Shown: positions 6,237 through 28,349 of the stretch, in pieces
Position numbering within the stretch: the first letter of the stretch is position 1
Layout: every line of letters begins with the position of its first letter
Source: a bacterium
GTDB taxonomy: Bacteria; Electryoneota; Tariuqbacteria; Tariuqbacterales; JADHWD01
DNA: 45,178 nucleotides
Direction: 5' to 3'
Assembly: GCA_016783645.1 (NCBI GenBank)
Contig: JADHWD010000002.1
Coordinates: 1 to 45,178, forward strand
Notes under the pieces: generated by a model
The model's input: only the letters and a program-made list of their open reading frames with translations
Databases searched by the model: none
Told to the model about the DNA's origin: nothing
Position numbers and translations under genes: made by a program

Positions 6237-6387
6237 ATAATCCCTCACCCGTCCCCGCATGACACTAATACACTGTTATTATTATATATGGTGTCGACTG
6301 CGGGGAGTCGACACCACAATATATGCGATTTTGTAGGGACACGCTATAGCGTGTCCCTACAATCCTGCATATTTATTTTCAGAGTAA
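6237..6387 (+). mobile_element. L/R cassette copy 0 (truncated left end; cargo modules A, B and the GTAG palindrome C)
   Basis: Partial left end ATAATCCCTCA; right end ATTTTCAGAGTAA (6375-6387) fused to the next left end. Confidence 0.5.
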
Positions 6388-6745
6388 ACTCTCGTGCGCC
6401 GGCGGCGCGCCACCAAGCATGAAAATAGTGCGACCCCTTCAGGGTCGTCAGGATTAATGTTCTACTTCCGTAGGTTTCACCTCCTGCTATTCATGTTTTT
6501 CCCCTTCGGGGAAGGGCGGCCGCAAGGGCCGCCCCTACATTCCCTGATATTTGTGGTGTCATGCGTCCCCGCATGACACTAATTGATATGTCGGGATTGA
6601 GACAATCCCGACTCCATAAATGGCAATCCGGTTTCTCCGAAACCGGGGAATACTGGCAGGTCACACCCGCTGTCAGCGCGCAAGACCTGCCAGAACAAGG
6701 TACTAGACCCTAAACATCAGCCCCTAGACCCTATTTTCAAAGTAA
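6385..6745 (+). mobile_element. L/R cassette copy 1 (cargo E-F-A-G-H-I-J)
   Basis: Left end 6385-6428, right end ATTTTCAAAGTAA 6733-6745; cargo blocks shared with the 18546-18844 and 27438-27562 copies. Confidence 0.7.
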
Positions 6746-6779
6746 ATATTGATCATCACTAATTATCCAATGACATTTT

Positions 6780-8861
6780 ATGCGCAGACAGCGGCGTAAA
6801 AAAAGCGGATTACGAGAAGAGCGTCCTTCGTACATGAACCGGGGCAGACTATGGCTTCTTTCCGCTCTATTTATCATTCTGAGTTTCGCAGTGTGGGCTC
6901 GGCTGTTTCAGTTACAGGTATTACTTCATGGCCATTACCATGAACTTGCGGTGAATCAGCGCGGGGACCGTATGGAGATAAAACTGCCCCGGGGCAGGAT
7001 ACTCGACCGTCACGGCGCGGCGCTGGCTCTCAATATCCCCCGTAGTTACTCTTTCGGAGTGCGGCCGTCGGAGGTGAAAGATAAATACAGTCTGGCATCG
7101 AATATATCCAAAGTGACCGGCCGCAGCCGCAATTACTATCTTGACCGTATGCGGACCGATTCACCTTTCATCTGGCTGGAACGGCAGACGGATGCCGATA
7201 AAGCCGGCAGATTGAGTTCCGTGAACGGTTTGATTCAGCAGTGTGAGACCCGCAGATTATATCCCAATGGCGCCGCCACACCCAAAGCTTTGGGATTCGT
7301 CAACCGCGATTGCGAAGGTATCGCCGGTATAGAGGAAATTTTCAATAACAAACTGGAGAGCGCGCCGGGTTATGAGATGACGGTGGAAGACGGATTCGGC
7401 AGAATATACGGTAATCTGAACGGTGCGCGGCAGGAACCGGTGCCGGGATGCAATATCTACACCACCTTCGACTGCGCGGTGCAGGAGATTGTTCTTAGCG
7501 TTCTGAATGAAGCTGTCGCCGGATATGATGCCAAAGGGGGGATGGCGATAGTGATGCTCCCCCGCACCGGCGAGATATTATCCATGGTTTCCACCCCTTT
7601 AAGCGACCCTAATAATCCCGCAAACTCAACTAATGATCATAAGCGTATCAAGCCTGTAGTCAATATCTACGAACCCGGTTCCACTTTTAAATTAGTGCCT
7701 GCGTTAGCCGCTTTGCTGAAAGGTATACCGCTGGATTATAAAGTCGACTGCGAAAACGGGCGTTACCGGATTGGAAGCCATACCATCAAAGATGTCAAAC
7801 CCTATAAAATTTTAAACTTCGAAGAGATCATCGTCAAATCGTCTAACATAGGCATCGCTAAAATCGCTCAGATGGTGGGCCGTAATGAATTATATCATGC
7901 GGCGCGGGATTTGGGATTCGGATGTCCTACCGGGATCGAACTGCCCGGTGAAGCGCGGGGAATTTTATCCCAGCCGTCGGAATGGGACGATTATTTGGCG
8001 GCGACTATAGGTTATGGTCAGGGAGTGTCGGTCAGCGCGTTACAGCTTGCCGCCGCCTATTCCGCCGTCGCTAACGATGGATTGATGTTCAAGCCCCGGA
8101 TAGTGCGCGCTATCGAGAACGCCGAAGGCGAAATATTCATGATAAAACCCACCACTGTCCGCCGGGTGATGTCCACCGAAACCGCCCATACCCTCACAGA
8201 TATTCTGGTAAAAGTCGTCAATGAGGGATCCGGAACCGCCGCCAAGATAGAGGGGATGGTTATCGCCGGTAAAACCGGCACCGCTCAGGTTCCTATTTCC
8301 CGCACCGAGGGTTACAGCCATGAACGGTTCATCAGCTCCTTCATCGGATTCACCCTCGATGAACCGCGGGTGCTCTGTATGGTAGTTCTGGAAGAACCGC
8401 AGAAAGCATATTACGCCTCCACAGTGGCGGCGCCTCAGTTCCGAAAAATCATCGAAAAGATTGTCCCTCTGTTAATCTCAAATGAAAGGTTGAAACAAGG
8501 ACCTCTTTGCGGATTACGCAGGTTTGAGATCGAAGAGATGAAAACACCTAACATGCTGACGCTGCCGCCTGAGAGCGCTTTAGCCGCCGCTAAAGAGGCC
8601 GGTATCAAATGTGTGCTTCTCGGAGACGGAGCTAAAATCACAAGCCAGCAGCCACCGCCGGGAGCTATGTTTATGAAAGGTGATACTTTAACGGTGTACG
8701 CTGGAAAATATGAGAACGCTCACGATGTCGTCGGTATGACGCTCCGCACAGCTGTCAAACGATTGACCGCTATGGGATATGAAGTCAGAGTGAATGGTTC
8801 GGGAGTAGTTAAATCCGCCGATTTCAGCGGCAAATTTTGTACACTCAATTGCATGCTCTAA
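6780..8861 (+). CDS. ftsI: Class B PBP FtsI (PBP3) with C-terminal PASTA-like domains
   Basis: RGRILDR, YEPGSTFK (SxxK), KSSN (SxN) and GKTGTAQ motifs. Confidence 0.93.
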   Translation: MRRQRRKKSGLREERPSYMNRGRLWLLSALFIILSFAVWARLFQLQVLLHGHYHELAVNQRGDRMEIKLPRGRILDRHGAALALNIPRSYSFGVRPSEVKDKYSLASNISKVTGRSRNYYLDRMRTDSPFIWLERQTDADKAGRLSSVNGLIQQCETRRLYPNGAATPKALGFVNRDCEGIAGIEEIFNNKLESAPGYEMTVEDGFGRIYGNLNGARQEPVPGCNIYTTFDCAVQEIVLSVLNEAVAGYDAKGGMAIVMLPRTGEILSMVSTPLSDPNNPANSTNDHKRIKPVVNIYEPGSTFKLVPALAALLKGIPLDYKVDCENGRYRIGSHTIKDVKPYKILNFEEIIVKSSNIGIAKIAQMVGRNELYHAARDLGFGCPTGIELPGEARGILSQPSEWDDYLAATIGYGQGVSVSALQLAAAYSAVANDGLMFKPRIVRAIENAEGEIFMIKPTTVRRVMSTETAHTLTDILVKVVNEGSGTAAKIEGMVIAGKTGTAQVPISRTEGYSHERFISSFIGFTLDEPRVLCMVVLEEPQKAYYASTVAAPQFRKIIEKIVPLLISNERLKQGPLCGLRRFEIEEMKTPNMLTLPPESALAAAKEAGIKCVLLGDGAKITSQQPPPGAMFMKGDTLTVYAGKYENAHDVVGMTLRTAVKRLTAMGYEVRVNGSGVVKSADFSGKFCTLNCML

Positions 8862-8956
8862 TTGCGAGTCAAAAGATTCAAGCAGTGAGCTAAAATAATC
8901 GACATTATAGCGTGTTCGATAGATTGTTTTACAATGAATATAATCCTCCTTAGGCG

Positions 8957-9093
8957 CTTAAGCGCTTAAATAAGCGGAATTGATTGTTTTTAAGGGCGAA
9001 GCAATTATTTTTAAGTGATTAATATTTTTATTGTTAACTAAAATTGCTTCGCCCCTACATTCCGTGAAAATAAGTCTTAGTTAAGCACTTATG
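8957..9093 (+). mobile_element. MITE with CAT-type TIRs, copy 1, inserted in a TAATCCCCC...GGGGGATTA palindrome (8941-9162)
   Basis: Homologous to 25304-25441; degenerate ~10-bp flanking duplication TCCTTAGGCG / CCCTTAGTCC. Confidence 0.7.
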
Positions 9094-9207
9094 CCCTTAG
9101 TCCCCCTTTAAAAAAGGGGGAAACCTAACCCCCCCTTTACTAAAGGGGGGCAGGGGGGATTATTTAATGATTATAATTAATGTCGCTCATTATAATATCG
9201 CAAATTT

Positions 9208-9343
9208 AACCTGTTCTGGCAGGTCTTGCTCGCCGCAGGCGGGTGTGACCTGCCAGCATTAACCGGTTTCGGATAAACCGGCCTGCTATTCTGTATATAA
9301 CTAACAGCTAACAGCTGACAACTGATAGCTATTTCAAGAGAAG
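9208..9343. repeat. Modules I and H, CTAACAG heptamers and a degenerate cassette right end
   Basis: CTGGCAGGT...GACCTGCCAG, CCGGTTTCGGATAAACCGG, then ATTTCAAGAGAA just before murE. Confidence 0.6.
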
Positions 9344-9351
9344 GATACTTA

Positions 9352-10836
9352 TTGAAGCTCAGCAATGTTCTTTCCGGTGTGGAAGTATTGGAGACTTCCG
9401 GATTCACCGATGACATAGAGATAACCGGATTAGCCTATGATTCCCGGCGGATTCAACCCGGTGATTTATTCTTCGCTGTAAAAGGATACAAGACTGACGG
9501 TCATAAATATATCGATGACGCCTTAAAAAAGGGCTGCGCCGCAGTGGTTCAGGAGGATAAATGGAATGACAGAGCTGAAGGATACCGTGTCAGAACCGCT
9601 GACTGCCGAACCGCAATGGCGCTGTCCGCATGTAATTTTTACCATCATCCTTCAAAAGATTTACTGTTATGTGGAATAACCGGCACTGACGGGAAGACTT
9701 CCGCCTGCCACATTCTCCGGCATATACTTAATCACCGCGGAAAAACGGGGATTATAGGCACGGTGGGAAATATATTTGAAAATCGAATATCCAAAGCTGT
9801 CCGCACCACTCCCGAAGCGGTGGATATTAACCGCACTCTGCGTGAGATGGCGGATGAAGGAGCGGCGTCAGTGGTCATGGAAGTGTCGTCACATGCGTTA
9901 GCGCTTAAACGAGTCGAAGAACTCGATTTCGATATCGCGGTCTTCACCAACCTGGCGCATGATCATCTCGATTTTCATTCGGATATGGAGGATTATTTTC
10001 AAGCCAAACTACAATTATTTAAAAACTTGAAACCTGCGGCCTGCGCCGTTATTAATATTGATGATCCCTATGGGAAGCGTATCCTGAAAGATGTCCAAGC
10101 TAAAAAATACTGTTTCTCCATGCAGGATGAAGGCGCTGATTTATATTATGAAATTCTCGAAAGCGATATAATGGGGAATCTGATGCGGTACAGATTTTCC
10201 GGCAAGGAATTGACAATCAGAGTACCCTTAATCGGATTTCCGGGAGCTTCCAATAGCGCAGCGGCGGTTTCAGCCGCTCACTGCGCCGGATGTGAAGCGG
10301 AAGAAATTGTGAAAAAGTTAGTCTCTTTCTCCGGAGTGAAAGGGCGGTTTCAAAGAATTGACTGCGGCGGTTTCACAGCTTTCACTGATTATGCGCATAC
10401 GCCTCAGGCTTTGGAACGCTTACTGCAGACAGTTAAACCCTTAACCGCGGGAAAACTTCATTTAGTGTTCGGATGCGGCGGGGACAGGGATAAAGCGAAA
10501 AGACCTTTGATGGGCGCCGCCGCTGAAAAAGCCGCGGATATGGTGTATATCACCAGCGACAATCCCCGCAGTGAAAATCCCGCTGAAATCATTAATGAAA
10601 TCCTGAAGGGTATTAAAGAAAGAAACCGTGTGCTTACAATCCCAGATAGGAGAGATGCGATAATCGAAGCTATGAATCGGTGCGAAAAAGGTGATACCGT
10701 CATCATCGCAGGCAAAGGACATGAAGATTATCAGGAAATCAACGGCGTCTTTTATCACTTCGATGACTGCGAAATCATCGAAGAGTGGCTAGGTAGGTCG
10801 GGGGCTTGTCCCCCGACAAATTGTGCGGGGGGATAA
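9352..10836 (+). CDS. murE: UDP-MurNAc-L-Ala-D-Glu:meso-DAP ligase
   Basis: GITGTDGKT, MEVSSH, DYAHTP, DNPR (meso-DAP specificity motif) and GKGHE. Confidence 0.95.
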   Translation: MKLSNVLSGVEVLETSGFTDDIEITGLAYDSRRIQPGDLFFAVKGYKTDGHKYIDDALKKGCAAVVQEDKWNDRAEGYRVRTADCRTAMALSACNFYHHPSKDLLLCGITGTDGKTSACHILRHILNHRGKTGIIGTVGNIFENRISKAVRTTPEAVDINRTLREMADEGAASVVMEVSSHALALKRVEELDFDIAVFTNLAHDHLDFHSDMEDYFQAKLQLFKNLKPAACAVINIDDPYGKRILKDVQAKKYCFSMQDEGADLYYEILESDIMGNLMRYRFSGKELTIRVPLIGFPGASNSAAAVSAAHCAGCEAEEIVKKLVSFSGVKGRFQRIDCGGFTAFTDYAHTPQALERLLQTVKPLTAGKLHLVFGCGGDRDKAKRPLMGAAAEKAADMVYITSDNPRSENPAEIINEILKGIKERNRVLTIPDRRDAIIEAMNRCEKGDTVIIAGKGHEDYQEINGVFYHFDDCEIIEEWLGRSGACPPTNCAGG

Positions 10837-10850
10837 ACCCCCCGCCTACC
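10792..10850 (+). repeat. GTAG-type REP doublet overlapping the murE 3' end
   Basis: Near-perfect reverse-complement copy at 15601-15659. Confidence 0.8.
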
Positions 10851-10922
10851 ATAACAATTATATTAGGACACCACCATAAAATCGAATAAAATATTTTCAA
10901 CATATAGACTCAAGGAAGACTC

Positions 10923-11150
10923 ATGACCAATGAAAAACCCTGCGGACATACCGCAGGAAAGTTCATAGGGGTGCAATATAATCCCCTCCGTAACGAGTAC
11001 ATATCTCTATTCAACTGCACAATCTGTAAGACCACCTTTTCCGTTCCCATCAGTGTAAATTCCAATTTGGAAAATCCATTTGAGGAGGCGGATTTTGAGC
11101 GGATTCCCGAATTCATGATAACAGAATCAGCGTTGAGGTTCGGCGCGTGA
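10923..11150 (+). CDS. Small hypothetical protein, possible zinc ribbon (CGH...CTIC)
   Basis: AGGAAG upstream; stop overlaps the murF start (GTGA), consistent with translational coupling. Confidence 0.6.
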   Translation: MTNEKPCGHTAGKFIGVQYNPLRNEYISLFNCTICKTTFSVPISVNSNLENPFEEADFERIPEFMITESALRFGA

Positions 11151-12502
11151 AAATCGGAGAAGCGGCGCGCGAATTGGGCTGGGAACTCCGCAGTGTCAAT
11201 CCTACGATGGAAATTCCCGCATTCTCCAACGACAGCCGTAATATATCCCCGGGCGAAATCTTCTGGGGACTTAAAGGGACAAGAGACGGCTGTGAATTCG
11301 CCGGAGACGCGCTTGAAAAAAGAGCCGGAGCGGTGGTCGTGAACCGCAGATGGGCGGATAAACTGCCTTCAGGCAGTCCCATCATCGTAGTATCCAATAT
11401 TGAAAAAGCCCTGGCGGCTTACGGAAGTCTCGCCCGCAGTAAATTCAAGGGCAAAGTATTCGCATTGACCGGAAGCTGTGGAAAGACCACCGTTAAAGAA
11501 CTGTTATATCAAGTTTTATCCAAAAAATACCGGGTAATCCGCAGTCAGGCAAGCTACAATAATCATATCGGAGTCCCTTTCACACTTAATTTATTGAATG
11601 ATAAGTTGGAAATAGCTGTAATTGAGATGGGCGCGAATCATCCGGGCGAAATCGCCGAATTATGCGAAATCGCCCGCCCTTCAGCCGGATTAATAACGAT
11701 GGTGGGCAGGGCGCATATGGCGGGGTTCACCACTCTCAAAGGAGTAGCGGAGGCTAAAGGCGAGCTGTTCCGGGGATTAATAGGACCGAAACTGGGATTT
11801 GTCAATTTCGATGACGCATATATAGTAGGCCAATCGGATATCCTGCCGCATCGTCTTGGCTATGGTTTCGGCCTTCCGCCGGCGGGGAAAGGATTCGCCC
11901 GGCTGTACCGCGCAGCGGAGACTTCCGATGGATTCAATCTGTTAAATAATGATTATAAATTCCCGTTCCCGCCTTTTATGATGATTCACGCCGTATCCGC
12001 CGCCGCTGTCGGGCATTTCTGGGGTGTGGAAACCGAAAATATCGCCGATGCGCTCGCCAAATTCGAAGGCTTGCCCGGCAGAATGCGCCGTATTGTAAAG
12101 GAAGGGATTATAATCTACGATGACACCTACAACTCCAATCCTTCGTCTCTTAAAGCGGCTCTACAGTATATTTCAGGTTTAAAAGCCGGCCGGAAAATCG
12201 CCGCGCTGGGAGATATGCGGGAGTTGGGAAATTACGAAGAGATGGAACATAAAGCGGCGGTCAAGCTGTTACAAGAGTTAGATTTCGATAAATGGTTCAC
12301 CTGCGGTGAAGCGTTCTCAAAAATCGAAGGCGCCTGTTATTGTTCCGATAAAGATGAGATGACGCACGAGATAGTTAAATATCTGCGGGAGGGGGATATA
12401 GTTCTCTTCAAGGGTTCGAGGGCAAACCGGATAGAACATGTCATGAATGAAGTGTTGAAGATGATAAATCCTAATGCGCCGGCGGCGCGCAACGAGACAT
12501 GA
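11147..12502 (+). CDS. murF: UDP-MurNAc-tripeptide:D-Ala-D-Ala ligase
   Basis: LTGSCGKTTVKE, NNHIGVP, EMGANH, DTYNSNP, LGDMRELG and KGSR motifs. Confidence 0.93.
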   Translation: MKIGEAARELGWELRSVNPTMEIPAFSNDSRNISPGEIFWGLKGTRDGCEFAGDALEKRAGAVVVNRRWADKLPSGSPIIVVSNIEKALAAYGSLARSKFKGKVFALTGSCGKTTVKELLYQVLSKKYRVIRSQASYNNHIGVPFTLNLLNDKLEIAVIEMGANHPGEIAELCEIARPSAGLITMVGRAHMAGFTTLKGVAEAKGELFRGLIGPKLGFVNFDDAYIVGQSDILPHRLGYGFGLPPAGKGFARLYRAAETSDGFNLLNNDYKFPFPPFMMIHAVSAAAVGHFWGVETENIADALAKFEGLPGRMRRIVKEGIIIYDDTYNSNPSSLKAALQYISGLKAGRKIAALGDMRELGNYEEMEHKAAVKLLQELDFDKWFTCGEAFSKIEGACYCSDKDEMTHEIVKYLREGDIVLFKGSRANRIEHVMNEVLKMINPNAPAARNET

Positions 12503-12584
12503 AATAGTCTCTAGGGCGACCGCAAGGGTCGCCCCTACAATATTGGATATATATTTGTAGGGGCAGACCAATGTGTCTGCCCTT
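12463..12584 (+). mobile_element. L/R cassette copy 2 (left end plus an F/GTAG REP pair; right end not recognised)
   Basis: Left end 12463-12507 overlaps the murF C-terminus; cargo nearly identical to 28169-28243. Confidence 0.6.
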
Positions 12585-12670
12585 CATTCAATAACATCAT
12601 ATCCCCAACAGGTTACGGGCTTAGCCCTTGAAACCTGCCGGGAACACAATATCGGACAAGGAAGTTCCTA

Positions 12671-13789
12671 TTGTTTTATCACCTTCTATATCCCTTGAAA
12701 GAATATATTTCCGGATTAAATATCCTGAGATATATCACCTTCAGGGCGGGATTTGCGGCTTTAGCGGCGCTGTTATTCAGCTTCATTATCGGTCCCCGGA
12801 TAATCAGATTCTTGAAAAACCATCAATTCGGTGAAGAGATCCGTTCCGATGGTCCCGCCACACACCAAAAGAAAGCCGGAACCCCGACTATGGGAGGATT
12901 GATAATAATCGCTGCCACAGTTATACCTACTTTATTATTCGCCAAACTTGACAATCTGTATGTATGGCTGACTCTGTTGGCGCTGTTATGGATGGGCGCT
13001 GTCGGATTCGCCGATGATTATCTCAAAGTGCGGATGAAAAAGAAAAAGGGATTAATCGCTAAGTACAAACTTGCCGGGCAGGTATTACTGGGGCTGATAG
13101 CGGGAGGGATTATTGTTCTTTTCGCCGAGGATTTATCGCCCAATTTCGCCCGCTATATCAATGCCACCACCATGCCGTTTTTGAAGGATACACTGATCGA
13201 TTTTGGATTATTTTATATTCCGATGATTATTTTTGTCTTGACCGCCACTTCCAACGGTGTGAACTTAAGCGACGGGCTCGACGGATTAGCGATTGGATTA
13301 GTGGGGATCATCACCGTAGCTTTAGCGGTAATGTGCTATATCACGGGAAATGTGCAGTATAGCGATTATCTTAATATCATCTACCTCCATGGTTCCGGTG
13401 AGTTGACCGTGTTTGCGGCGGCGCTTCTGGGTGCGGCTTTGGGATTTTTGTGGTACAATACCTATCCCGCCGAAGTGTTCATGGGGGACACCGGCAGTCT
13501 GGCTATCGGCAGCGCTTTAGGAATGATGTTCATCCTAATAAAGAAGGAACTTTTACTCATAATCATCGGCGGCGTATTCGCGGCGGAAGCAGCTTCCGTG
13601 CTCATTCAGACCACTTATTTCAAATACACGCGCAAAAAATTCGGCGAAGGCAGGCGGATATTCCTCATGACGCCTCTGCACCATCATTTTGAATTACTGG
13701 GATGGCCCGAAAGCAGGGTTGTTGTCAGATTCTGGATTGTTGAAATACTTTTAGTGCTAATCAGCCTGACGACATTCAAGATAAGATGA
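12671..13789 (+). CDS. mraY: Phospho-N-acetylmuramoyl-pentapeptide transferase
   Basis: GTPTMGG, GFADDY, NLSDGLDGLA, FMGDTGS and PLHHHFEL motifs. Confidence 0.97.
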   Translation: MFYHLLYPLKEYISGLNILRYITFRAGFAALAALLFSFIIGPRIIRFLKNHQFGEEIRSDGPATHQKKAGTPTMGGLIIIAATVIPTLLFAKLDNLYVWLTLLALLWMGAVGFADDYLKVRMKKKKGLIAKYKLAGQVLLGLIAGGIIVLFAEDLSPNFARYINATTMPFLKDTLIDFGLFYIPMIIFVLTATSNGVNLSDGLDGLAIGLVGIITVALAVMCYITGNVQYSDYLNIIYLHGSGELTVFAAALLGAALGFLWYNTYPAEVFMGDTGSLAIGSALGMMFILIKKELLLIIIGGVFAAEAASVLIQTTYFKYTRKKFGEGRRIFLMTPLHHHFELLGWPESRVVVRFWIVEILLVLISLTTFKIR

Positions 13790-13802
13790 AGCAACGCATT
13801 AG

Positions 13803-14009
13803 AGAAACCCTCATGCCGGCAAGCCGGCGCAACGAAGCATGAAAATAGCCTCAAGGGCGGCCGCAAGGGCCGCCCCTACATTCCCGGATGTAATTGTGGT
13901 GTCATGCGTCCCCGCATGACACTAAGGTATTGTTATTATTATATATGATATCTACTATAGAGAGTCGACACCACGTTGAATTGAATCCTAAACCCTATTT
14001 TTAAAGTAA
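13803..14009 (+). mobile_element. L/R cassette copy 3 (cargo F-A-B-J)
   Basis: Left end 13803-13848, right end ATTTTTAAAGTAA 13997-14009; colinear with 18676-18844. Confidence 0.7.
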
Positions 14010-14049
14010 ATATCTGAAAAATCTTGATAACATACGAACTGCGGTCGTC

Positions 14050-15357: not shown

Positions 15358-15510
15358 CAGAATTTCGTCTTTCTTGAGCCTTGAGTACAGAGTCCTGACA
15401 GTGTGCCCGATAATAGCAAATGTCATTCCGAAACGGCAAAGGCTATTCGGAAACCATAGTTATTTAATAACTTAAATTAAATATGATTGTTCATCCGCTT
15501 TACAGCGGAT

Positions 15511-15741
15511 TCAGGAGAACAGACTTTAGTCTGTTCATAAAAGTTAAAGGTAATGATATTTAAGATTAGTTCCAATATTGTATTTATTTGAGGTCTTCTT
15601 GGTAGGCGGGGGGTTTATCCCCCCGTATAATTTGTTGGGGGACAAGCCCCCAACCTACCAAATTATAAGTTGAAAATTGAACTAATCTATCATATCAATA
15701 CAGTTAAACACTAAAATGTCGGACTAAAGTCCGACCTCCTG
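15511..15741. repeat. Nested palindrome mosaic: inverted CAGGAG-..GACTTTAGTC.. pair enclosing the GTAG REP doublet at 15601-15659
   Basis: 15511-15536 and 15718-15741 are imperfect reverse complements of each other. Confidence 0.6.
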
Positions 15742-15757
15742 TTCATAGGAGATATTT

Positions 15758-19004: not shown

Positions 19005-19152
19005 GTTATGCGCTTCACAATGCTATAATGTGACTGAATTTTGAATCCTGTAAATCCTGTATATCCGTAGTTAATTTATGAGTAATTCAGGTTAAGAAGG
19101 TAAAATAAAATATTTCCGTATATTTCAGTATGGAAATTGATTACAGGCTTAA

Positions 19153-20538: not shown

Positions 20539-20542
20539 TGAG

Positions 20543-21478
20543 ATGGAAAGGCGGGATAGAAACGGAGAGGATTTTCATGAGATTGAGCATCCGGAATCAC
20601 GCAGATTGAGTGAATTCACTTCCTATCGCGTAGGGGGTCCCGCGAAGCGGATTTTAGTTCCTCGACACAAAGAGGAGCTTGTTAGTATTATCCGCTTGCT
20701 GAAAGATGAAGCGGAGGATTATTATATCATCGGCGGAGGATCAAATTTATTGGTCTCCGATAGAGGCTTCGACGGCGCTGTCATCCTTATGACTGAATGC
20801 TGTCTGGATTTGCAGATTGAAGACGGGGAGGTTCACTGCGGTTCCGGCATAGAACTTTTAACGCTGATAAGCGCCGCAATAAACTCTGGTTTAGGCGGAT
20901 TAGAACGATTAGCCGGTATTCCGGGGACTGTCGGCGGGGCGTTGATGATGAACGCCGGCGCTTACGGCAGTGAAATATCCGACAGATTGAAAAGGGTCGA
21001 AATCCTTGACGAGAATGGAAAATTCATGGCGCTTGATAAAGATAAAATCGGTTTTTCTTATCGTAACGCTCCCGGATTGGAAAACAAATTTATACTATCC
21101 GCAGAATTTGAACTGCAACCCGGCGAATGGGTCGGTCCCGCTAAGATGGCGGTGGAAATAATGAGGATGCGCGCCGCCAAGCAGCCTCTGGAATATCCCT
21201 CTGCAGGATCAGTATTTAAGCGTAATTCCGCAGGTCCCGCCGGAATGTTCATAGAATGGGCGGGATTGAAAGGGATGAGATTAGGGGGAGCGCAGATATC
21301 GGAAAAACACGCCAATTTTATCATTAACCGCGGCGGCGCTAAAGCTCTGGAAATTTTAACATTAATGAAAAGAATGCAAAAAATGGTATATGAGAAATAC
21401 GGAATAGAACTGGAATTGGAACAGCGTCTGATAGGATTCACTCCTGAAGAGCTGGAAAATCCTGAGGCTTTTCTATGA
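20543..21478 (+). CDS. murB: UDP-N-acetylenolpyruvoylglucosamine reductase (start moved to ATG 20543 to remove the overlap with murC)
   Basis: TSYRVGGPA, GGGSNLL, GIPGTVGG..MNAGAYG, PSAGSVFK and KHANFIIN motifs. Confidence 0.93.
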   Translation: MERRDRNGEDFHEIEHPESRRLSEFTSYRVGGPAKRILVPRHKEELVSIIRLLKDEAEDYYIIGGGSNLLVSDRGFDGAVILMTECCLDLQIEDGEVHCGSGIELLTLISAAINSGLGGLERLAGIPGTVGGALMMNAGAYGSEISDRLKRVEILDENGKFMALDKDKIGFSYRNAPGLENKFILSAEFELQPGEWVGPAKMAVEIMRMRAAKQPLEYPSAGSVFKRNSAGPAGMFIEWAGLKGMRLGGAQISEKHANFIINRGGAKALEILTLMKRMQKMVYEKYGIELELEQRLIGFTPEELENPEAFL

Positions 21479-22203
21479 GACGCCGCAGGAAGAAAAATCC
21501 CTGGAACGCGGTTCTGCTTCTGCTGTTCATCGGAATCGGTGGTTTCGCTTTATGGAAATTAGTGTTCTGGTCTTTACAAACGGAATCCTTCGCAGTGAAG
21601 CAGGTGAATATAAAGGGATTGAGATATCAGGATAAAACATCGGTCTCAACTATCATAAATTCGGCGCTGGGGCAGAATATTTTCAGAGTCGGATTGGATT
21701 CATTAGAAATGCGGGTGGAAAGACTGCCTTGGATTAAGAAGGCGAGATTATATCGTTCCTTTCCGGCGCATTTGAATTTAGTTGTAGAAGAGCGGTCATT
21801 GATAGCGGCGCTTAACCGCGGCGGCAGATTGATCGGTGTGGACTGTGATGGCAACACCACTGCGGAACTGCGTCCGGGCGAGGTATTCGATCTCCCTATA
21901 ATATCTAAACTACGCAGCGGAGAAAAGGAGATGAAACAAGCTGTCGATTTCCTAACCGCGGCCTATACTCTCAGCCCCGCTATCTATTCCCGCATCTCTG
22001 AAGTCACCATGTACCAAGGTAAATTGGCGGTTTTAATGGGGGAGAACGCTCAATTAATCATAATCGGCGCCGGGCAATATGCGAATAAGTTAATCAAATT
22101 ATGGGCGCTTCTTGAAAAATCAGATTGGAAACCCGGCGCTTATTCGATTATTGATCTAAGATTTTCCCGGCAGGTGATATTGAAAAAAGACGGAAATTCG
22201 TGA
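21475..22203 (+). CDS. ftsQ: Cell division protein FtsQ/DivIB
   Basis: One TM segment, POTRA-like region (LPWIKKA..R.FP..L...EER), C-terminal IDLRF; position before ftsA. Confidence 0.85.
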   Translation: MRRRRKKNPWNAVLLLLFIGIGGFALWKLVFWSLQTESFAVKQVNIKGLRYQDKTSVSTIINSALGQNIFRVGLDSLEMRVERLPWIKKARLYRSFPAHLNLVVEERSLIAALNRGGRLIGVDCDGNTTAELRPGEVFDLPIISKLRSGEKEMKQAVDFLTAAYTLSPAIYSRISEVTMYQGKLAVLMGENAQLIIIGAGQYANKLIKLWALLEKSDWKPGAYSIIDLRFSRQVILKKDGNS

Positions 22204-22361
22204 GAAACAATATTACTAAATAGTGTTTTATTCATGTGTGCGAGTCTTAGCATAACGGATTTTAAAATTATAAGAATTGCAAAATGATTTTTCTTGCCCC
22301 ATTGACTTAACAACTTGCAGACTTGCAGACATATTTTAAAAAATTAAAGAGGTATCCTGTG

Positions 22362-23624
22362 ATGCAAGGCAGTCGAAAAATAGTGGGATTAGATTTAGGA
22401 ACTACCAAAGTTTCCTGCATCATCGCCGAAGTGGACGAAGACGGTATTCCTTCGATTGTAGGAGTGAGCAGTTATCCCGCTCAGGGGATGCGGCGCGGTG
22501 TGGTGATAAATATTGAACAGACGGCGGCGACTATTGAAAAAGCGGTTGCGGAAGCTGAAAGGATGGCCGGCACAGAGGTCTCAGCGGTTTATACCGGAAT
22601 AGCCGGCGACCATATCCGCAGTATCAATTCCCGCGGAGTCATCGCCATCACCCGCCGGGGCGGGAATGTGAGTCAGAATGAAATCCGCCAGGATGATGTA
22701 GACCGGGTGGTAGAAGCGGCGAAAGCGGTGTCCATGCCTATGGATAGGGAAGTGATTCATGTGATAGTCCAGCAGTTCATCGTCGATGACCAAAAAGGGA
22801 TTAAAAATCCGGTAGGACAAGCCGGTGTGAGACTTGAGGCGGATGTTCACATAATCACCGGAGCGGTCGCTTCCGCACAGAATGTCTACCGCTGTGTGAA
22901 AAGAGCGGGTATCACGGTCAGAGATTTGGTGTTAGAACCCTTGGCTTCCAGTTATGCGGTATTAGAGGAGAACGAGCGGGAATTGGGAGTGGGGATGATA
23001 GATTTAGGCGGAGGCACCAGCGATATCGCTATTTTCGAGGATGGTGTGATCAAACACACTCATGTGCTGGCGGTCGGTGGGCAGTTAGTCACCAGAGATA
23101 TAGCTATCGGACTCAACATACCGCTGGATCAGGCTGAAAAATTGAAACTCGAACACGGCTTGGCGCATCCATCATTGGTGAAAGAGGATATAGAGATTAA
23201 ATTACCGAAATTCGGCAGCCGTCCCGCCAGCAGTATCGCCGCTTCGGAACTGACCGGAATTATCCATTTCCGGATGCGGGAGATATTTGAATTCGCCCGC
23301 GATGAAATCATCAGAATGCTCGGCGCTAATTATCAGCAGAAACTGCCGGCGGGTTTAATATTAACCGGCGGAGGCGCACTCCTGCCGGGCACCGATATCC
23401 TCGCCGGTGAAGTGCTGGGATTCCCTGTGCAGATACGGGGATCGCTGGGTGTCAGCGGTTTGACCAGCTTGGTAGACAGCCCGGTCTACGCCACCGGAGT
23501 CGGTCTGATTCTATACGGAATGAAATTCGGCGGCGATACCGATGCTTTCCTCGGCGATGAAAGCAAAGTCTTTGAAAAAATCCTCAACCGCATGAAACGC
23601 TGGTGGGATGAGTTTTTCACTTAA
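22362..23624 (+). CDS. ftsA: Cell division protein FtsA (start at ATG 22362 after an AGAGG RBS)
   Basis: GLDLGTTK, IDLGGGTSD and LTGGGA motifs; amphipathic C-terminal helix. Confidence 0.95.
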   Translation: MQGSRKIVGLDLGTTKVSCIIAEVDEDGIPSIVGVSSYPAQGMRRGVVINIEQTAATIEKAVAEAERMAGTEVSAVYTGIAGDHIRSINSRGVIAITRRGGNVSQNEIRQDDVDRVVEAAKAVSMPMDREVIHVIVQQFIVDDQKGIKNPVGQAGVRLEADVHIITGAVASAQNVYRCVKRAGITVRDLVLEPLASSYAVLEENERELGVGMIDLGGGTSDIAIFEDGVIKHTHVLAVGGQLVTRDIAIGLNIPLDQAEKLKLEHGLAHPSLVKEDIEIKLPKFGSRPASSIAASELTGIIHFRMREIFEFARDEIIRMLGANYQQKLPAGLILTGGGALLPGTDILAGEVLGFPVQIRGSLGVSGLTSLVDSPVYATGVGLILYGMKFGGDTDAFLGDESKVFEKILNRMKRWWDEFFT

Positions 23625-23960
23625 ACGCGCTATGCGCTGCCGGTGCACGATGAAGCATGAAAATAGTTTCAAGGGCATCCGCAAGGGATGCCCCTACAAT
23701 ATTATTGTTCTGCCAGGTCTTGTCCCAGCTTAACGGGATGTGACCTGGCAGCGTCAGATCACACTTGCGTTTCCGTAAGAAGGTACTGTCGCAACGATAG
23801 AACAATGTTCTGTCCATACCGGATTCCCGCCTGTGCGGGAATGGCGGCGTTCCCTCTCGTTCCCACGCTCCAGCGTGGGAATGCATACCTAATTCTCATT
23901 CCCACGCTGAAACATGGGAATGAGAAAGCAGCTAACAGCTAATAAATATTTTCAATGTAT
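23622..23960 (+). mobile_element. L/R cassette copy 5 (cargo F, I, dRS3-like palindrome, two TTCCCACGCT palindromes, heptamers)
   Basis: Left end begins at the ftsA TAA and ends CATGAAAATAG at 23666; right end ATTTTCAATGTA at 23948-23959. Confidence 0.65.
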
Positions 23961-24049
23961 CAACAAATGAACACGAACAGTATAGTCATTTCTCAATTCA
24001 TTAAGGAGTACGGTATGAAAGGAAGAAGTTTATTACAGGAGGGCAGCCG

Positions 24050-25231
24050 ATGAGTGAACGATTCAAATTGGAATTGGCTGACGGATTTGAACAGCACGCC
24101 GAGATTGTGGTGGTCGGCGTGGGCGGAGCGGGCAAAAATGCGGTCAACAACATGATTAATTCCGGCATGAGCGGGGTTGATTTCGTAGTGGTGAACACCG
24201 ATGTGCAGGCATTGGAATCCAGTTTGGCTGACCGCAGAATCCAGATAGGCCGTAACATCACCAAGGGATTAGGCGCCGGAGCTAATCCGGAAATCGGCCG
24301 TCAAGCTATCGAAGAAGACCGGGACTCGGTGGCTGACGCTATATCCGGTGCGGATATGGTATTTATCACCGCCGGTATGGGCGGCGGGACTGGCACCGGA
24401 GCCGCGCCGGTGATAGCGGAAATCGCCCGTGAAAACGGAGCTTTGACGGTCGGAGTCGTCACCAAACCCTTCATGTTTGAAGGCGCTAAGCGCAACCAGA
24501 GAGCTGCCGCTGGTATCGAAGAATTAAAAGGGAAAATCGATACTTTAATCGTGATACCCAATCAGCGGTTATTGGAGATTGTCCCTGAAGACGCTCCTCT
24601 GCAGGAAGCATTCAAGAAAGCCGATGATGTTTTACTGCAGGCGACCAAAGGAATATCCGATTTAATCACCATACCGGGACTGATAAATCTCGATTTCGCC
24701 GATGTGAAGACGGTGATGTCGGAGATGGGAGACGCTTTGATGGGGATCGGTAAGGGCGAAGGCAGTAACCGCGCTGTAGAAGCGGCGAAGAATGCCATCA
24801 CCAGCCCCTTGCTCGATGAAATCAACATCAAAGGCGCTAAAGGTGTTCTCATCAATATCACCGGCGGATCCAGCCTGTCGCTTCATGAAGTGGGCAAAGC
24901 CACTGATATCATCTACCAAGCCGCCGGCAATGACGCCAATATTATCTTCGGCGTCGTCATCGATCCCAGCATGAACGATTCGATCAATGTCACTGTCATC
25001 GCTACCGGATTCAACGAAAACGGCCGGAAGCAGATTATAAGACCCGGAATAGAAAGGATCACCAGCTTCCAGCCGTCTGACGAGGAAGTCCATAATATCC
25101 CCTCTATCCATCGTAAAAGATATCCCCGCAATGTCGATGAACATCGGCTGGATTCCAACACTGTGGAGGCTTTTAGCCTTGATGAACTTGAAATACCGAC
25201 ATTCATCCGCCGCTCAAAAGTAGGGAACTGA
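24050..25231 (+). CDS. ftsZ: Cell division protein FtsZ
   Basis: [16 protein letters not shown] and C-terminal [10 protein letters not shown] motifs; GGAGG RBS. Confidence 0.98.
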
Positions 25232-25303
25232 GAGGATAAGAAGATATTAAATTGGATAATATTTTTAATAACCCTCAGCGCTTTCATGCGCACCTCCAAG
25301 CCC

Positions 25304-25441
25304 CATAAGCGCTTAAATAAGCGGAATTGAATGTTCTTGTAAGGGCGAAGCATTTTAGGTTAACAATAAAAATATTAATCACTTACAAAAAATGCTTCGC
25401 CCCTACATCCCTTGAATATATGTCTTAATTAAGCGCTTATG
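25304..25441 (+). mobile_element. 138-bp MITE, copy 2, with TIR CATAAGCGCTTAA(A/T)TAAG and an 11-bp TSD
   Basis: CCTCCAAGCCC at 25293-25303 and 25442-25452; CAT ends with an 11-bp TSD resemble IS4-family (IS231-like) elements. Confidence 0.85.
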
Positions 25442-25754
25442 CCTCCAAGCCCCCTTCATCCGAAGGGGGTTATTATTACAAAAGAAACAAAATAGGTTCA
25501 GTGATAGTTAAATTACTCAATCCGCTAAATTCACTGTGAATATTTAAAACCCGGATTCTGGGTTATGTGCTTAAAATATTCACCCGGTTGCTGATAATTT
25601 TATTTTTTTCTCTGATAATGTTGAAATTCATTGATATTAGTGTAATTGTATATTTTAATTGAATATGCATCTGCGCAATCAGTGAAAATCTGCGTTAATC
25701 TGCGGTTCAGATACTGGTTTACACAGAATCGAGGTAAAATAGTTAAGTAAAATA

Positions 25755-27275
25755 ATGTCTTCACATACGCCTAAGACTTCAAGCGAAAGACACCTGTATC
25801 AATATCAGTCCGGCAGATTCAAAGTCAGCCTGTTTTATCCGAACAGTTACCAGACAGCTATGGCGAGTCTGGGATTTCAGACGGTCTATCATTGTTTCAA
25901 TTCCCAGCCGGAATTCAGCGCGGAGAGGATATATTGGGATAATTCAGGACGGCCTTCAGCTTCCGTCAGTGGAGAAATATTAGCGCTGTCGATTTCTTAT
26001 GAACTGGATATTTTGAATTTCATTAAAGCCTTGATAAAATGGGGAATTGAACCTTTTGCTGATAAAAGGTCAGGACCTCTAATTGTTACAGGCGGGATAT
26101 TGACACTGATAAATCCTCTGCCTTTGGCTCCTTTCGTCGATTTATTTCTCATAGGAGATGGCGAGCATCTGATACCACGGTTCCGCCGGACATACCAAAG
26201 GTATTATCTGGAAGGGAAAGCGAAACTACTGGAGGAATTATCCAAAATCGAAGGATGCTGGGCGCCGGCTTTAGGCAAACCTCAGAATATCACACCGGTA
26301 TCGTATCCTCGTTCCAGCCCTTTGCATTCAGCGGTGATCACTCCCGACAGCCATTTCGGCGATATGTTTCTGATCGAAGCCGGCAGGGGATGTCCCCGCA
26401 AATGCAGGTTCTGCGCCTCCTGCCATATTCATAGATACGAATATCACCCGCCGGCTGATTTGATAGAAACTGTGAAACGGCACATCAATCCCCCGGCATT
26501 GGTGGGATTGATAGGATCAGCCCTCTCGGATTATCCTTACCTGAAAGAGTTGATAGGATATCTCGCCGGTAACGGTTATAAGATTTCCACATCCTCTCTG
26601 CGGGTCGATGCGGTCGATGATACGATTTTGAAGTATTTGGTGAACAGCGGTATGCGCACTTTGACAATTGCTCCGGAAGCTGGTTCTTTAAGATTGCGCA
26701 GGATAATCGGTAAAGGTATGAGCGACGCTCTGATTAAACGGGCGGTTAAAAAGGCGCGGGAAGCCGGATTCAATCGACTTAAGCTCTATTTTATGATAGG
26801 TCTACCCGGGGAAACCGACTCTGACATCGATGCGTTAATCAAGCTTGTTGAAGATATGTCGGAGATCTATAATTCCGGCGGACTGGAATTATCCCTCAAC
26901 GCTTTTATTCCTAAACCTCACACACCCTTCCAATGGGCGCCTTTCCGTGGTGAACCTTATTTAAAGAAAGTGCGAAAGAGAATCAAACAGGCTTTGCCGA
27001 AAATTAAATTCATACCGCGCAGTTCCGGGCAGGAAAAACTGCAGGCGCTTTTATCACTTGGTGACGAACGGATAGGGACTGCATTATATGAAAACATCAC
27101 TAAGGGGATATCGATACCGGCTGTTTTAAAAGACTTGGGAGTCAATATTGAAGAAACATTAGGATTAAAGGGCGCGGAATATCAACTGCCTTGGCGCGGT
27201 TTTCAATCCATCTTCGACACCGATTTTCTCTATAAGCAATGGCGGAAAGCGCAGATACTGGCTGAACTAACATGA
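25755..27275 (+). CDS. Radical SAM protein with a B12-binding-like N-terminal region
   Basis: RGCPRKCRFC (CxxxCxxC), YPNSY..AM.SLGFQ, TIAPEAGS and FIPKPHTPFQW motifs. Confidence 0.85.
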   Translation: MSSHTPKTSSERHLYQYQSGRFKVSLFYPNSYQTAMASLGFQTVYHCFNSQPEFSAERIYWDNSGRPSASVSGEILALSISYELDILNFIKALIKWGIEPFADKRSGPLIVTGGILTLINPLPLAPFVDLFLIGDGEHLIPRFRRTYQRYYLEGKAKLLEELSKIEGCWAPALGKPQNITPVSYPRSSPLHSAVITPDSHFGDMFLIEAGRGCPRKCRFCASCHIHRYEYHPPADLIETVKRHINPPALVGLIGSALSDYPYLKELIGYLAGNGYKISTSSLRVDAVDDTILKYLVNSGMRTLTIAPEAGSLRLRRIIGKGMSDALIKRAVKKAREAGFNRLKLYFMIGLPGETDSDIDALIKLVEDMSEIYNSGGLELSLNAFIPKPHTPFQWAPFRGEPYLKKVRKRIKQALPKIKFIPRSSGQEKLQALLSLGDERIGTALYENITKGISIPAVLKDLGVNIEETLGLKGAEYQLPWRGFQSIFDTDFLYKQWRKAQILAELT

Positions 27276-27276
27276 T

Positions 27277-27440
27277 TTACCTTGAAAATAGATGGAAGGG
27301 CGGGTTATAAACCCGCCCCTACGAAGGGCGATGTAGGGGTGGGTTTTTAACCCACCCAAAGATTATCCGGTTTCGGAGAAACCGGGCTACCACCGCTATT
27401 TTCATGCTAAGTTGTCAGCCGTACGGCTGATGGGGGTTTA
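27277..27440 (-). mobile_element. L/R cassette copy 6, minus strand (cargo H plus a GTAG REP pair)
   Basis: Left end is the reverse complement of 27396-27440; right end is the reverse complement of TTACCTTGAAAAT (27277-27289). Confidence 0.7.
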
Positions 27441-27562
27441 TCTTGAAAATAGGGTTTAAGGGCTGGGGTCTAGGGTCTAATACCTTGTTCCGGCAGGTTT
27501 TGCACGCCATAAGCGGGTGTGACCTGCCAGTGTTGTCCCGGTTTCGCAGAAACCGGGCTGCC
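27438..27562 (-). mobile_element. Right part of a tandem cassette (H-I-J plus right end)
   Basis: About 120-bp inverted homolog of 6622-6745, fused to the left end of copy 6. Confidence 0.7.
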
Positions 27563-27779
27563 TTAAAACTAAGAGAATGGAGGTATTTTTAGTATATCTT
27601 TTCTTTACCCTTGACCCATTACCATGTTTTCATAAATCAAAAAAATCATAATAAATTATCAGATAACGGGAACCGGTGAATAAAGATCAAGTTTAATCTA
27701 TTGTGAAGATTTGCTTTTTTCAAATGAAAAAATTATATTTTTCAAACTTGATTAAATCACTAAAGCAAATCACGATAAT

Positions 27780-27944
27780 ATGCTGAAAAAAGAATTATTG
27801 GATATTCTCGCCTGCCCCAAATGTAAAGGGGATCTGGAGTATGATCAAGAGAACGAGGTTCTCATCTGTCATGCCTGCCGTTTGAAATATGAGGTCAAGG
27901 ATGACATTCCTATCATGCTCATAGACGAGGCGGAAAGTTTTTAA
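27780..27944 (+). CDS. Trm112/YcaR family protein (54 aa, not in the ORF track)
   Basis: [19 protein letters not shown]...[27 protein letters not shown]. Confidence 0.9.
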
Positions 27945-28067
27945 CTAGGATTAAATTCATAGACGGAGCAGCTTATATAACAGTTCGTTAAAGGTTTTTT
28001 ACACATGTGTCAGCTTCCCATTGTATCGTAAATCATTGTGCATTCGCCTTTAACGAATTTGTGTTCA

Positions 28068-28102
28068 AACCGGATATTCGCGGCGGATGTTCGGTTTTTT
28101 TT
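28068..28102 (+). terminator. Probable intrinsic terminator
   Basis: AACCGGATATTCG / CGGATGTTCGGTT stem with G-U pairs, followed by a T run. Confidence 0.65.
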
Positions 28103-28122
28103 ATTTCAAGAGGTTCAGGCAG

Positions 28123-28349
28123 GAGAAACTCTCAAACTCCTTCAATACGCCGCCAAGCATGAATATAATCTCAAGGGCGACCGCAAGGGTCGCCCCTACA
28201 TGTCAGATGTTATTTGTAGGAGCAGACCAATGTGTCTGCCTTTAATTCAGTAGCCCGGTTTCTCCGAAACCGGGGAATTATTAGAGATATGAGACAGGAG
28301 ACCTGAGACTTCAATCGAAACTCGCAACTCGAAGTTATTTTCAGAAAAA
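28123..28349 (+). mobile_element. L/R cassette copy 7, degenerate ends (cargo F, GTAG palindrome, H, heptamers)
   Basis: GAGAAACTCTCA...CCAAGCATGAATAT left end; TATTTTCAGAAAAA right end; cargo matches copy 2. Confidence 0.55.

Follow-up and report, generated by a model that had tools for sequence, protein, structure and literature searches.

Directional two-hairpin cassettes with NAAA borders in an Electryoneota genome and in several other phyla

The division and cell-wall operon of a bacterium of the Electryoneota (lineage JADHWD01, GenBank assembly GCA_016783645.1) is interspersed with short non-coding cassettes, which occupy the gaps between its genes and are bounded by a conserved left end (L) and a conserved right end (R). 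We analyzed the 45,178-nt stretch that carries this operon (JADHWD010000002.1, contig C187; hereafter, the window) along with the rest of the metagenome-assembled genome (MAG; G000, 2.73 Mb, 221 contigs, 77.6% complete), other genomes of the phylum and genomes from other phyla. The unit that is copied extends from L to R, and the cassettes very probably represent a family of mobile, non-autonomous elements of the kind of repetitive extragenic palindromes (REPs) or miniature transposable elements with inverted repeats (MITEs). The more specific reading that we favor, with somewhat less than even confidence, is that they are a non-autonomous, non-coding mobile element within a mosaic similar to REPs and bacterial interspersed mosaic elements (BIMEs), and that they are moved as folded single-stranded DNA (ssDNA) to NAAA sites. 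A preliminary description, based on the letters of the window, had pointed out the recurrent ends and suggested a cassette system with an integron-like site; its observations are partly confirmed and its interpretation is partly supported.

Anatomy of the cassettes and the unit of copying

L begins at a tetranucleotide border, NAAA|CCCTCATG, and continues with a GC hairpin (hairpin 1), CACCACGAAGCA and TGAAAATAG, whereas R reads CTATTTTCA-RRR-TAAA|. The two 9-mers, TGAAAATAG at the end of L and CTATTTTCA at the start of R, are inverted repeats that make up the arms of a second hairpin (hairpin 2), so that the cargo of a cassette sits in the hairpin 2 loop. Hairpin 1 lies between CCCTCA and CCACGAAG, and hairpin 2 between GCA and RRR-NAAA. 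In other genomes, the loop of hairpin 2 is 3-13 nt long, which gives an element of 59-70 nt overall.

What is copied can be read from the linkage between sequence variants. L variants are associated with the cargo of their own cassette (z 8.0 and 5.4) but not with the cargo before it (z 0.3 and 0.0); the R triplet, in turn, is associated with the cargo that precedes it (z 3.7) and not with the L that follows (z 1.6). Therefore, the copied block runs from L to R and the break falls at TAAA; more generally, the unit of copying is L to R, broken at NAAA. This bears out the view of the preliminary description that L/R-bounded cassettes adjoin one another via a common core (TAAA). L ends without a fused R (n=136) are still preceded by TAAA (77-87% per base), together with a weak R-like A/T tract, and it is from such flanks, not from empty sites, that the NAAA insertion site is read. 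The RRR triplet in front of TAAA is not duplicated (8 identical cases against 8.2 expected), and the element termini at the TAAA borders (CCCTCATG... and ...CTATTTTCARRR) are not inverted repeats of each other. Thus, the element has no terminal inverted repeats and creates no duplication beyond the tetranucleotide.

Copies in the window

The copies in the window are the following (letters designate cargo modules, described below; a REPIN is a REP doublet).

6237-6388, plus strand: 5'-truncated cassette remnant with modules D and E and a GTAG palindrome, ending in the R TTATTTTCA-GAG-TAAA (6373-6388)
6385-6746, plus strand: complete cassette in the rsmH-ftsI gap; L 6385-6428, whose TAAA also belongs to the R before it; cargo 6429-6730 (modules A, B, D, F, G and H, then heptamers); R 6731-6746
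12465-12507, plus strand: L with a one-base deletion (CATGAAATAG), followed by a REPIN (~12518-12590), without R
13804-14010, plus strand: complete cassette in the mraY-murD gap; L 13804-13848; cargo 13849-13994; R 13995-14010 (CTATTTTTA-AAG-TAAA, with one mismatch, ATTTTTA)
18206-18249, plus strand: degenerate L (covariance model 19.9 bits, E 0.007; repeat family D5)
18548-18845, plus strand: complete cassette in the murG-murC gap; L 18548-18591; cargo 18592-18829; R 18830-18845; CAGGATAAA on either flank
23622-23961, plus strand: cassette 3' of ftsA; L 23622-23666; cargo with REP-like hairpins; degenerate R ATTTTCAATGTATC (~23948-23961)
27276-27440, minus strand: complete cassette, reversed; L 27396-27440; cargo 27292-27395 (104 nt); R 27276-27291
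27437-27575, minus strand: R (27437-27452), a separate cargo made of heptamers and modules H and G, no L found; R fused via TAAA to the L at 27396-27440
28125-28350, plus strand: decayed copy; L-like remnant without the hairpin (28125-28168), REPIN, module G, R-like ATTTTCAGAAAAAA (~28335-28350)

A covariance model of L identifies six solid copies in the window. Five of these are members of the training set of the model (13804-13848, 58.3 bits; 6385-6428, 57.0; 18548-18591, 56.7; 27396-27440, minus strand, 50.4; 23622-23666, 44.2), and the sixth, at 12465-12507, which was outside the training set, scores 36.9 bits. These correspond to six of the seven L ends that had been placed at 6385, 12463, 13803, 18546, 23622, 27440 (minus strand) and 28123; the last one is the hairpin-less remnant (14.3 bits, E 0.13), and the degenerate L at 18206 had been missed. 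Exact matches to CCCTCATG in the window are at the chance level (2 against 1.45 expected, with 2 reached in 45 of 100 shuffles), the remaining copies being variants, whereas ATGAAAATAG with at most one mismatch occurs 14 times against 5.9 expected, a number reached in 0 of 100 shuffles. Five of the eight R ends in the preliminary description match ATTTTCA-N3-TAAA exactly (6375, 6733, 18832 and, on the minus strand, 27276 and 27437; 0.08 expected); the one at 13997 has a mismatch, and those at 23948 and 28337 are R-like sequences without TAAA. The two fusions of R to L (R|L) at 6375-6428 and 27396-27452 are as described there, and such fusions abound in the MAG, with 134 that contain the exact 9-mer and 159 at up to one mismatch.

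Abundance and orientation in the genome

The MAG contains about 270 L and at least 375 R ends; fuzzy patterns match 273 L and 691 R, compared to 2 and 62 in shuffled sequence. The exact 9-mer, as CTATTTTCA or TGAAAATAG, is present 628 times, and the 627 occurrences that were classified include 241 terminal R, 134 R fused to L, 147 3' ends of L, 101 others and 4 at contig edges. An R lies within 500 nt downstream of 191 of the 273 L (70%) but only of 124 of 2496 random places (5%). Chains of L are mostly single (167), with 41 double and 8 triple ones. The family occupies ~470 dispersed sites. Among the 442 contig ends, 83 are within 300 nt of a 9-mer core; hence, the family breaks the assembly.

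With respect to flanking co-directional genes, 113 L of the MAG are co-oriented and 54 opposed, and divergent gaps contain 33 L compared to 10 in convergent gaps. Given that GC skew in this genome tracks the gene strand, replication and transcription cannot be separated here. In G084, a complete chromosome, the orientation matches the local GC skew in 24 of 34 copies, which are partly clustered (p 0.034), and there is no preference for gene direction (9 co-oriented, 10 opposed).

Conservation and folding of the hairpins

Across 65 distinct copies from many genomes, 82.7% of the cells in the alignment are paired, compared to 61.2% after shuffling, and the covariation score of hairpin 1 is 0.525 against 0.177, a value that none of 500 shuffles reach; the alignment was fitted to the covariance model and leans towards the structure. 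Double-change cells number 67 as opposed to 20 in shuffles, and slid controls score 0.05-0.15. Thus, hairpin 1 covaries, that is, its sequence is free but the pairing is kept, as had been noticed from the window. In the minimal units of G086, counted on a structure that we specified ourselves, hairpin 1 is 88.6% paired with two covarying pairs, and hairpin 2 is 95.1% paired and invariant, so that it yields no covariation evidence. RNAalifold predicted no pairs for 29 minimal units.

In the folded R|L junction, the 9-mers close a stem that contains an inner hairpin, and the boundary TAAA|C is unpaired, between the two hairpins. The preliminary description had the stem extending through G-T pairs exclusively on the strand opposite to the L-to-R direction, a claim that the data do not bear out. 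As ssDNA, the bottom strand of the junction is favored in 81 of 117 cases, by an average of 0.34 kcal/mol, which is a small difference. The closing T.G wobbles are on the top (L-to-R) strand, in 23 of 65 copies and, among minimal copies, in 26 of 28 for hairpin 1 and 24 of 28 for hairpin 2, whereas the wobbles of the inner stem are balanced (25 G.T against 29 A.C cells, outer pair excluded). A hammerhead-like ribozyme was also considered for CTGATGAGGG and rejected by eye: only one hairpin variant agrees, and the stems misfit.

Cargo of the cassettes and RAYT genes

The cargo in the MAG is non-coding, as described previously, and 63-400 nt long, with no empty cassette in this genome. It is not arbitrary, being a mosaic of a limited set of at least 11 hairpin modules, mostly REPs and REPINs, which are present in 34-234 copies each and are also found elsewhere in the genome. 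The modules differ widely in how closely they follow the cassettes: within 300 nt of a 9-mer core, a region that covers 9.2% of the genome, lie 100% of the copies of module A, 90% of D and 80% of B, but 18% of K and 6% of M. Many modules are GTAG-tagged REPs or REP doublets, and module E often directly precedes R. Tandem repeats with a period of 7 precede 45% of 368 R ends as opposed to 0.5% of random places. These heptamers vary (CCCTAGA, ACTTGCA, ACTGTCG, CAGCTAA; for example, at 6702-6730 and 18801-18829 of the window), and similar ones stand before R in other phyla (loci L016 and L043).

The MAG encodes six Y1 proteins resembling REP-associated tyrosine transposases (RAYTs), of which three pass the NCBIfam cut-off for this family and three score lower. 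Every one of the six genes is flanked by its own REP, and two of these REPs are main cargo modules: the commonest cargo REPIN borders the RAYT gene on contig C215, and module E borders the one on C66. Three RAYT-like genes (C83:23547-24005, C215:333-779 and C199:6583-7200) have their own REP or REPIN within the open reading frame (ORF) as well as on both flanks, with three tandem REP copies inside the C199 ORF. A RAYT gene is located just upstream of pgk both in the MAG (C83) and in G002 (C549; loci L124 and L132), with different flanking REPs, which suggests that this gene was vertically kept while its REP changed along with it.

Distribution and evidence of insertion

Comparison with relatives indicates that the cassettes in the window were inserted. 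The murF-mraY and mraY-murD junctions are 0-7 nt long in G001 and G002, which belong to the same order, but 168 and 260 nt long, with cassettes, in the window; in G002, cassettes are absent from these junctions despite many copies elsewhere. Coding sequence is affected, too: the murF frame enters the L at 12465-12502, so that its last ~10 codons (INPNAPAARNET) and the TGA stop are supplied by the repeat, and the stop codon of ftsA is the TAA of the L at 23622-23666.

Among 79 species genomes of the host phylum, the exact L pattern is found in this MAG only, whereas the covariance model detects diverged copies in 7, namely, with up to 80 candidates scored per genome, at least 51 in G002, 8 in G034, 3 in G035, 2 each in G001 and G046, and 1 in G075. 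The copies in G002 likewise show the order L, module A, heptamers, R. Outside the phylum, a scan of one genome per species with the exact pattern found L in MAGs labelled Thermodesulfobacteriota/Deltaproteobacteria, Smithella, Dehalococcoidia/Chloroflexota, Acetothermia and Acidobacteria, where real L stand beside about as many chance matches as expected. Several of the genomes from other phyla contain minimal elements that consist of L, 3-13 nt and R. In G086, there are at least 112 copies, with units of 59-70 nt in tandem arrays of 2-5, in which neighboring units differ in hairpin and loop. G084 carries at least 35 copies with lower L scores (33-51 bits), which may be relics. The border tetranucleotide co-varies on both sides, being TAAA in the MAG, GAAA in G034, CAAA in G086 and Dehalococcoidia, and CAAT or GAAT in G084. 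At two loci of G084 (L160, C1 ~643.9-645.4 kb, and L179, ~3.807-3.809 Mb; 98.4% alike over 1.8 kb), an IS4-like insertion sequence (IS) with a 450-aa DDE_Tnp_1 protein and its own 28-bp inverted repeats is inserted inside a REP within a cassette.

Plasmid and phage collections contain no match to the family, and the 50 stretches with the exact pattern in IMG/VR were dismissed as chance matches, with one weak match to the model (26.1 bits). In metagenomic runs X1, X2, X6 and X7, from four studies of marine, aquatic and estuary samples, contig pieces cover the unique genes of window positions 6000-25999 with 0 differing letters, and the gaps that contain repeats have a depth 10 to 90 times as high as the genes. 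Logan contigs of four runs break at every repeat and none bridges a cassette, the joints in them stemming from other repeat copies. Among metagenome contigs, 0 match the short mraY-murD spacer, and a control 24-mer from the end of mraY also has 0 matches, so that the organism is absent or left out of that collection.

Search for the mobilizing enzyme

The window encodes no candidate enzyme, in agreement with the preliminary description. In the MAG, profile searches (PF01797, NF047646, PF00589, PF07282, PF02371, PF04986 and PF00078) identified, besides the RAYTs, two fragments of IS110 and an IS91-type element that contains an integrase but lacks L/R ends, and no TnpB or reverse transcriptase in the assembled sequence. 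PF00589 matches two genes, one xerC-like, beside topA, and the other inside the IS91-type element; no intI-like integrase was found in this 77.6%-complete genome, whose incompleteness precludes proof of absence. Carrier genomes were searched with profiles of the Y1, RAYT and Y2 families, and the surroundings of Y1 genes were examined in G079-G081, in G002, G035 and G083, and in G086, G087 and G088. The Y1/RAYT-like matches in G002, G035 and G083 are flanked by other REPs, never by L/R, and tblastn searches with three RAYTs against other carriers produced matches at only ~30% identity.

Listing the genes between L and R ends, as had been suggested, revealed no cargo ORF. Six long L..R pairs in the MAG (more than 600 nt apart) enclose ordinary housekeeping genes. 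We found no parental IS with L and R at its ends; the L..R pair of 1.6 kb in G084 is an IS4-like IS with its own terminal inverted repeats. The ORFs near L at 38 loci of other genomes comprise no recurrent family.

Proposed mechanism and alternatives

We tentatively propose a single-strand mechanism of the HUH type. An HUH-type (Y1-like) nuclease acting in trans would cut the element out and paste it in as folded ssDNA, with cleavage after NAAA at points 8 nt ahead of hairpin 1 and 7 nt past hairpin 2, and with insertion 3' of NAAA within an R-like, A/T-rich context. Because every element ends in the NAAA target site, new copies would land behind old ones, building head-to-tail arrays. In the MAG, the hairpin 2 loop is filled, and continues to be reshuffled, with heptamer tandem repeats and with REP and REPIN hairpins of RAYTs whose genes lie elsewhere in the genome. 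HUH-type transposition provides the best fit to the hairpins near the ends, the fixed tetranucleotide, the lack of inverted termini, the stacking of unlike units and the Y1-rich host.

Several observations weigh against this scheme. We infer the mechanism, and the lack of a linked enzyme is a real gap: none of the six RAYT genes of the MAG is flanked by L/R, no Y1 gene adjoins L/R in eight other carriers, the complete chromosome of G084 has 0 Y1_Tnp matches and only a broken RAYT fragment (19.7 bits), and Y2_Tnp is present in 1 of 5 carriers. The evidence on the folding strand is mixed. The orientation bias in the MAG is weak (the 113 to 54 ratio relative to genes; odds ratio 1.9 with skew), and the agreement with skew in G084 is derived from only 34 copies, some of them clustered. 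The two hairpins of the element are dissimilar, whereas the ends of IS200/IS605 elements, among which we take IS608 and ISDra2 for comparison, carry similar hairpins. Pairing of the ends throughout the genome, on which the preliminary description had staked its case, holds in part: 70% of L have an R, yet, of the 310 R away from contig ends, 128 (41%) lack both an L within 520 nt and an inverted R, whereas 168 are accompanied by an L and 14 by an inverted R. No empty site from a close strain and no circle junction were seen in the repeat-broken Logan contigs or in the metagenome collection that lacks the organism. Finally, TAAA on both sides is also what a 4-bp target duplication would leave.

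The latter possibility corresponds to a cut-and-paste MITE, inserted at TAAA by a DDE transposase with a 4-bp target-site duplication. Apart from the TAAA on both sides of solo cassettes, the tetranucleotide varies by genome, as target preferences do, and DDE insertion sequences occur in carrier genomes. We consider this quite unlikely all the same: the termini CCCTCATG/CTATTTTCARRR are not inverted repeats, the 9-mer pair, which is the sole inverted repeat, lies asymmetrically in the interior, R outnumber L, with the 41% of R that lack an L, and there is no parent IS, long pairs enclosing housekeeping genes or the IS4-like IS with its own ends. The cargo suggests another scheme, unlikely as well but with more in its favor, in which the L/R backbone is immobile and serves as a palindromic landing pad (TGAAAATAG/CTATTTTCA) for REPs and REPINs, the composite being copied by the RAYTs of the cargo. 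This would account for the cargo of at least 63 nt in all cassettes of the MAG, for the concentration of modules A, D and B near the 9-mer core and for the identity of the C215 and C66 RAYT flanks with cargo modules, and REP dimers in target palindromes are on record in the part of PMC3733652 on which we draw. Nevertheless, REP-free minimal cassettes with loops of 3-13 nt reach at least 112 copies, in tandem, in G086, which means that the backbone multiplies without cargo; the variant linkage joins L and its own cargo into one block that includes the backbone ends; and bare REPs, in no case L/R, stand beside the RAYT genes.

The integron analogy of the preliminary description, namely, that a tyrosine recombinase acts on the folded R|L junction as a non-canonical attC site and assembles the cassettes, appears highly improbable. 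Head-to-tail arrays of independent units with a common core and a junction that folds into a 9-mer-closed stem with an inner hairpin are compatible with it, and the boundary AAA|C resembles the AA|C at which the RYYYAAC box is cleaved. The site is indeed not a canonical attC, as had been stated: 0 of 125 junctions have both RYYYAAC and GTTRRRY. However, no cassette contains an ORF, no intI-like gene was found in the 77.6%-complete genome, the two tyrosine recombinases being the xerC-like protein and the resident of the IS91-type element without L/R, the sites are dispersed (~470) rather than gathered on a single platform, the arrays are short, and the crossover point is unpaired in the fold rather than lying in a paired R box. 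No better are the chances of a structured RNA involved in processing, stability or attenuation within operons, with selection on the transcript and spread being secondary. The cassettes sit between genes of one essential operon and so must be transcribed through, they are co-oriented with genes at about 2:1 (113 against 54), and both hairpins close with U.G on the sense strand. Against this stand the one third of copies that are antisense in the MAG and 10 of 19 in G084, the excess of divergent (33) over convergent (10) gaps, the absence from the same junctions of relatives and patchy distribution in the phylum, the lack of a consensus RNAalifold fold for minimal units, and the lack of an Rfam family: none matches the window at the gathering threshold, and at E up to 10 the region 6200-6800 gives chance-level matches only. 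The Rfam comparison that had been proposed for the window thus produced no family match.

Compared to these alternatives, transposition of the element as folded ssDNA remains the reading that we favor. A bolder version of it, which we regard as doubtful, is that the family comprises undescribed ~60-nt two-hairpin cassettes that are spread across phyla, NAAA-specific, gene-free, stacking and used as REPIN landing pads, and that the enzyme that moves them, while acting on a folded single strand, belongs to none of the Y1/Y2 HUH, TnpB and integron-integrase families. If so, a comparison of genomes with and without the cassettes could reveal this enzyme. In any case, small non-coding repeats account for a notable share of this genome, with 9% of it within 300 nt of a 9-mer core; they break the assembly, sit inside the most conserved bacterial operon and rewrite the end of murF. 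The family offers a clean, directional and minimal substrate, two hairpins and a four-base border, with many independent insertions in several phyla, and is therefore well suited to tracking down the nuclease or recombinase behind the movement of such elements and to the study of target choice by REPINs. For annotation and binning, a model of the family would account for many contig breaks in MAGs of the carrier lineages.

Other features of the window

The operon spans 4-25 kb of the window (mraZ, rsmH, ftsI, murE, murF, mraY, murD, ftsW, murG, murC, murB, ftsQ, ftsA, ftsZ) and is followed by a radical-SAM gene and genes for type-IX-secretion cargo proteins; a scan detected 0 tRNA genes in the window. 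Between murG and the cassette at 18548, positions 18386-18510 contain an ORF of ~41 codons that starts basic and has a hydrophobic tail; we know of no similar gene at this place of the dcw operon in other bacteria. Tandem arrays of the octamer GTTAAGTR, with ~8 to 15 units, are located at 5777-5862 and 36948-37073, directly 3' of the stop codons of rsmH and of the gene for a 1097-aa secreted protein, respectively. Two 300-nt stretches, 37218-37517 and 37651-37950, are 75% identical and 433 nt apart; they overlap the ORFs at 37134-37580 and 37549-38046, and look like a tandem gene duplication.

Comparison with known systems

The element shares with IS200/IS605 insertion sequences and the non-autonomous elements derived from them, palindrome-associated transposable elements (PATEs), the subterminal hairpins without terminal inverted repeats, insertion beside a fixed tetranucleotide that also marks the other end, and, on the small sample of copies in one complete genome (G084), an orientation biased with GC skew. 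It differs in that no TnpA or TnpB with L/R ends was found and in that the element ends with the same tetranucleotide as the target, which leads to head-to-tail arrays. The similarity to integron attC sites extends to head-to-tail units with a short common core and to a junction that forms an ssDNA stem with an inner variable hairpin whose pairing is kept. Integron cassettes usually carry one promoterless ORF, whereas the L/R cassettes have no ORFs and no RYYYAAC/GTTRRRY, no integrase or attI platform was found for them in the incomplete genome, and they occupy hundreds of dispersed sites; GTTRRRY alone occurs in 0 of the 125 R|L junctions on the top strand and in 2 on the bottom strand.

The closest similarity is to REPs, BIMEs and REPINs. 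In both cases, intergenic hairpins in high copy number form mosaics and tandem units. REPs and BIMEs are short, GC-rich intergenic palindromes in more than 100 copies; here, the counts are 34-234 per module and ~270 for L. The host encodes several RAYTs, each beside its own REP, and GTAG-tagged REPs serve as cargo modules. The L/R backbone itself lacks the GTAG/CGTC tag, GTAG being carried by the cargo REPs. It is directional, with two hairpins and fixed NAAA borders, and does not flank any RAYT. Moreover, a family this similar is present in several phyla, whereas REP families are usually each bound to one RAYT lineage. For the tandem amplification of BIMEs, models of Y1 cleavage and strand transfer are set out in the relevant part of PMC3333891.

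In the literature on REP/RAYT, Chunjie/MITE and heptanucleotide repeats, we found no description of the L/R family, with the supplements of PMC2700814 and PMC3733652, which lie outside this scope, possibly bearing on it; a literature search for the motifs returned primers only. The part of PMC2700814 considered here describes multicopy intergenic sequences of Geobacter metallireducens with tandem hepta- and octanucleotide repeats, read as IHF/HU sites. These resemble the present cassettes in forming paired intergenic blocks of tandem heptamers or octamers with variable spacing, but the consensus repeats are unlike, in a comparison made without the published alignments. Also comparable are the REP dimers inside target palindromes, GTAG-15 of Anabaena variabilis and CGTC-1 of Halothiobacillus, in the part of Di Nocera et al. 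2013 (PMC3733652) considered here, where, as in the present cassettes, GTAG REP dimers are central in a longer conserved palindrome with the inner arms ...TGAAA--TTTCA.... Compared to what that part of the source describes, the arms here are part of a larger, directional element that has NAAA borders and a second hairpin and that, in other phyla, also exists empty, in tandem arrays. What is new in the present case is, thus, a directional two-hairpin cassette with NAAA borders that is found in several phyla and, in this genome, is a landing pad for REPINs.

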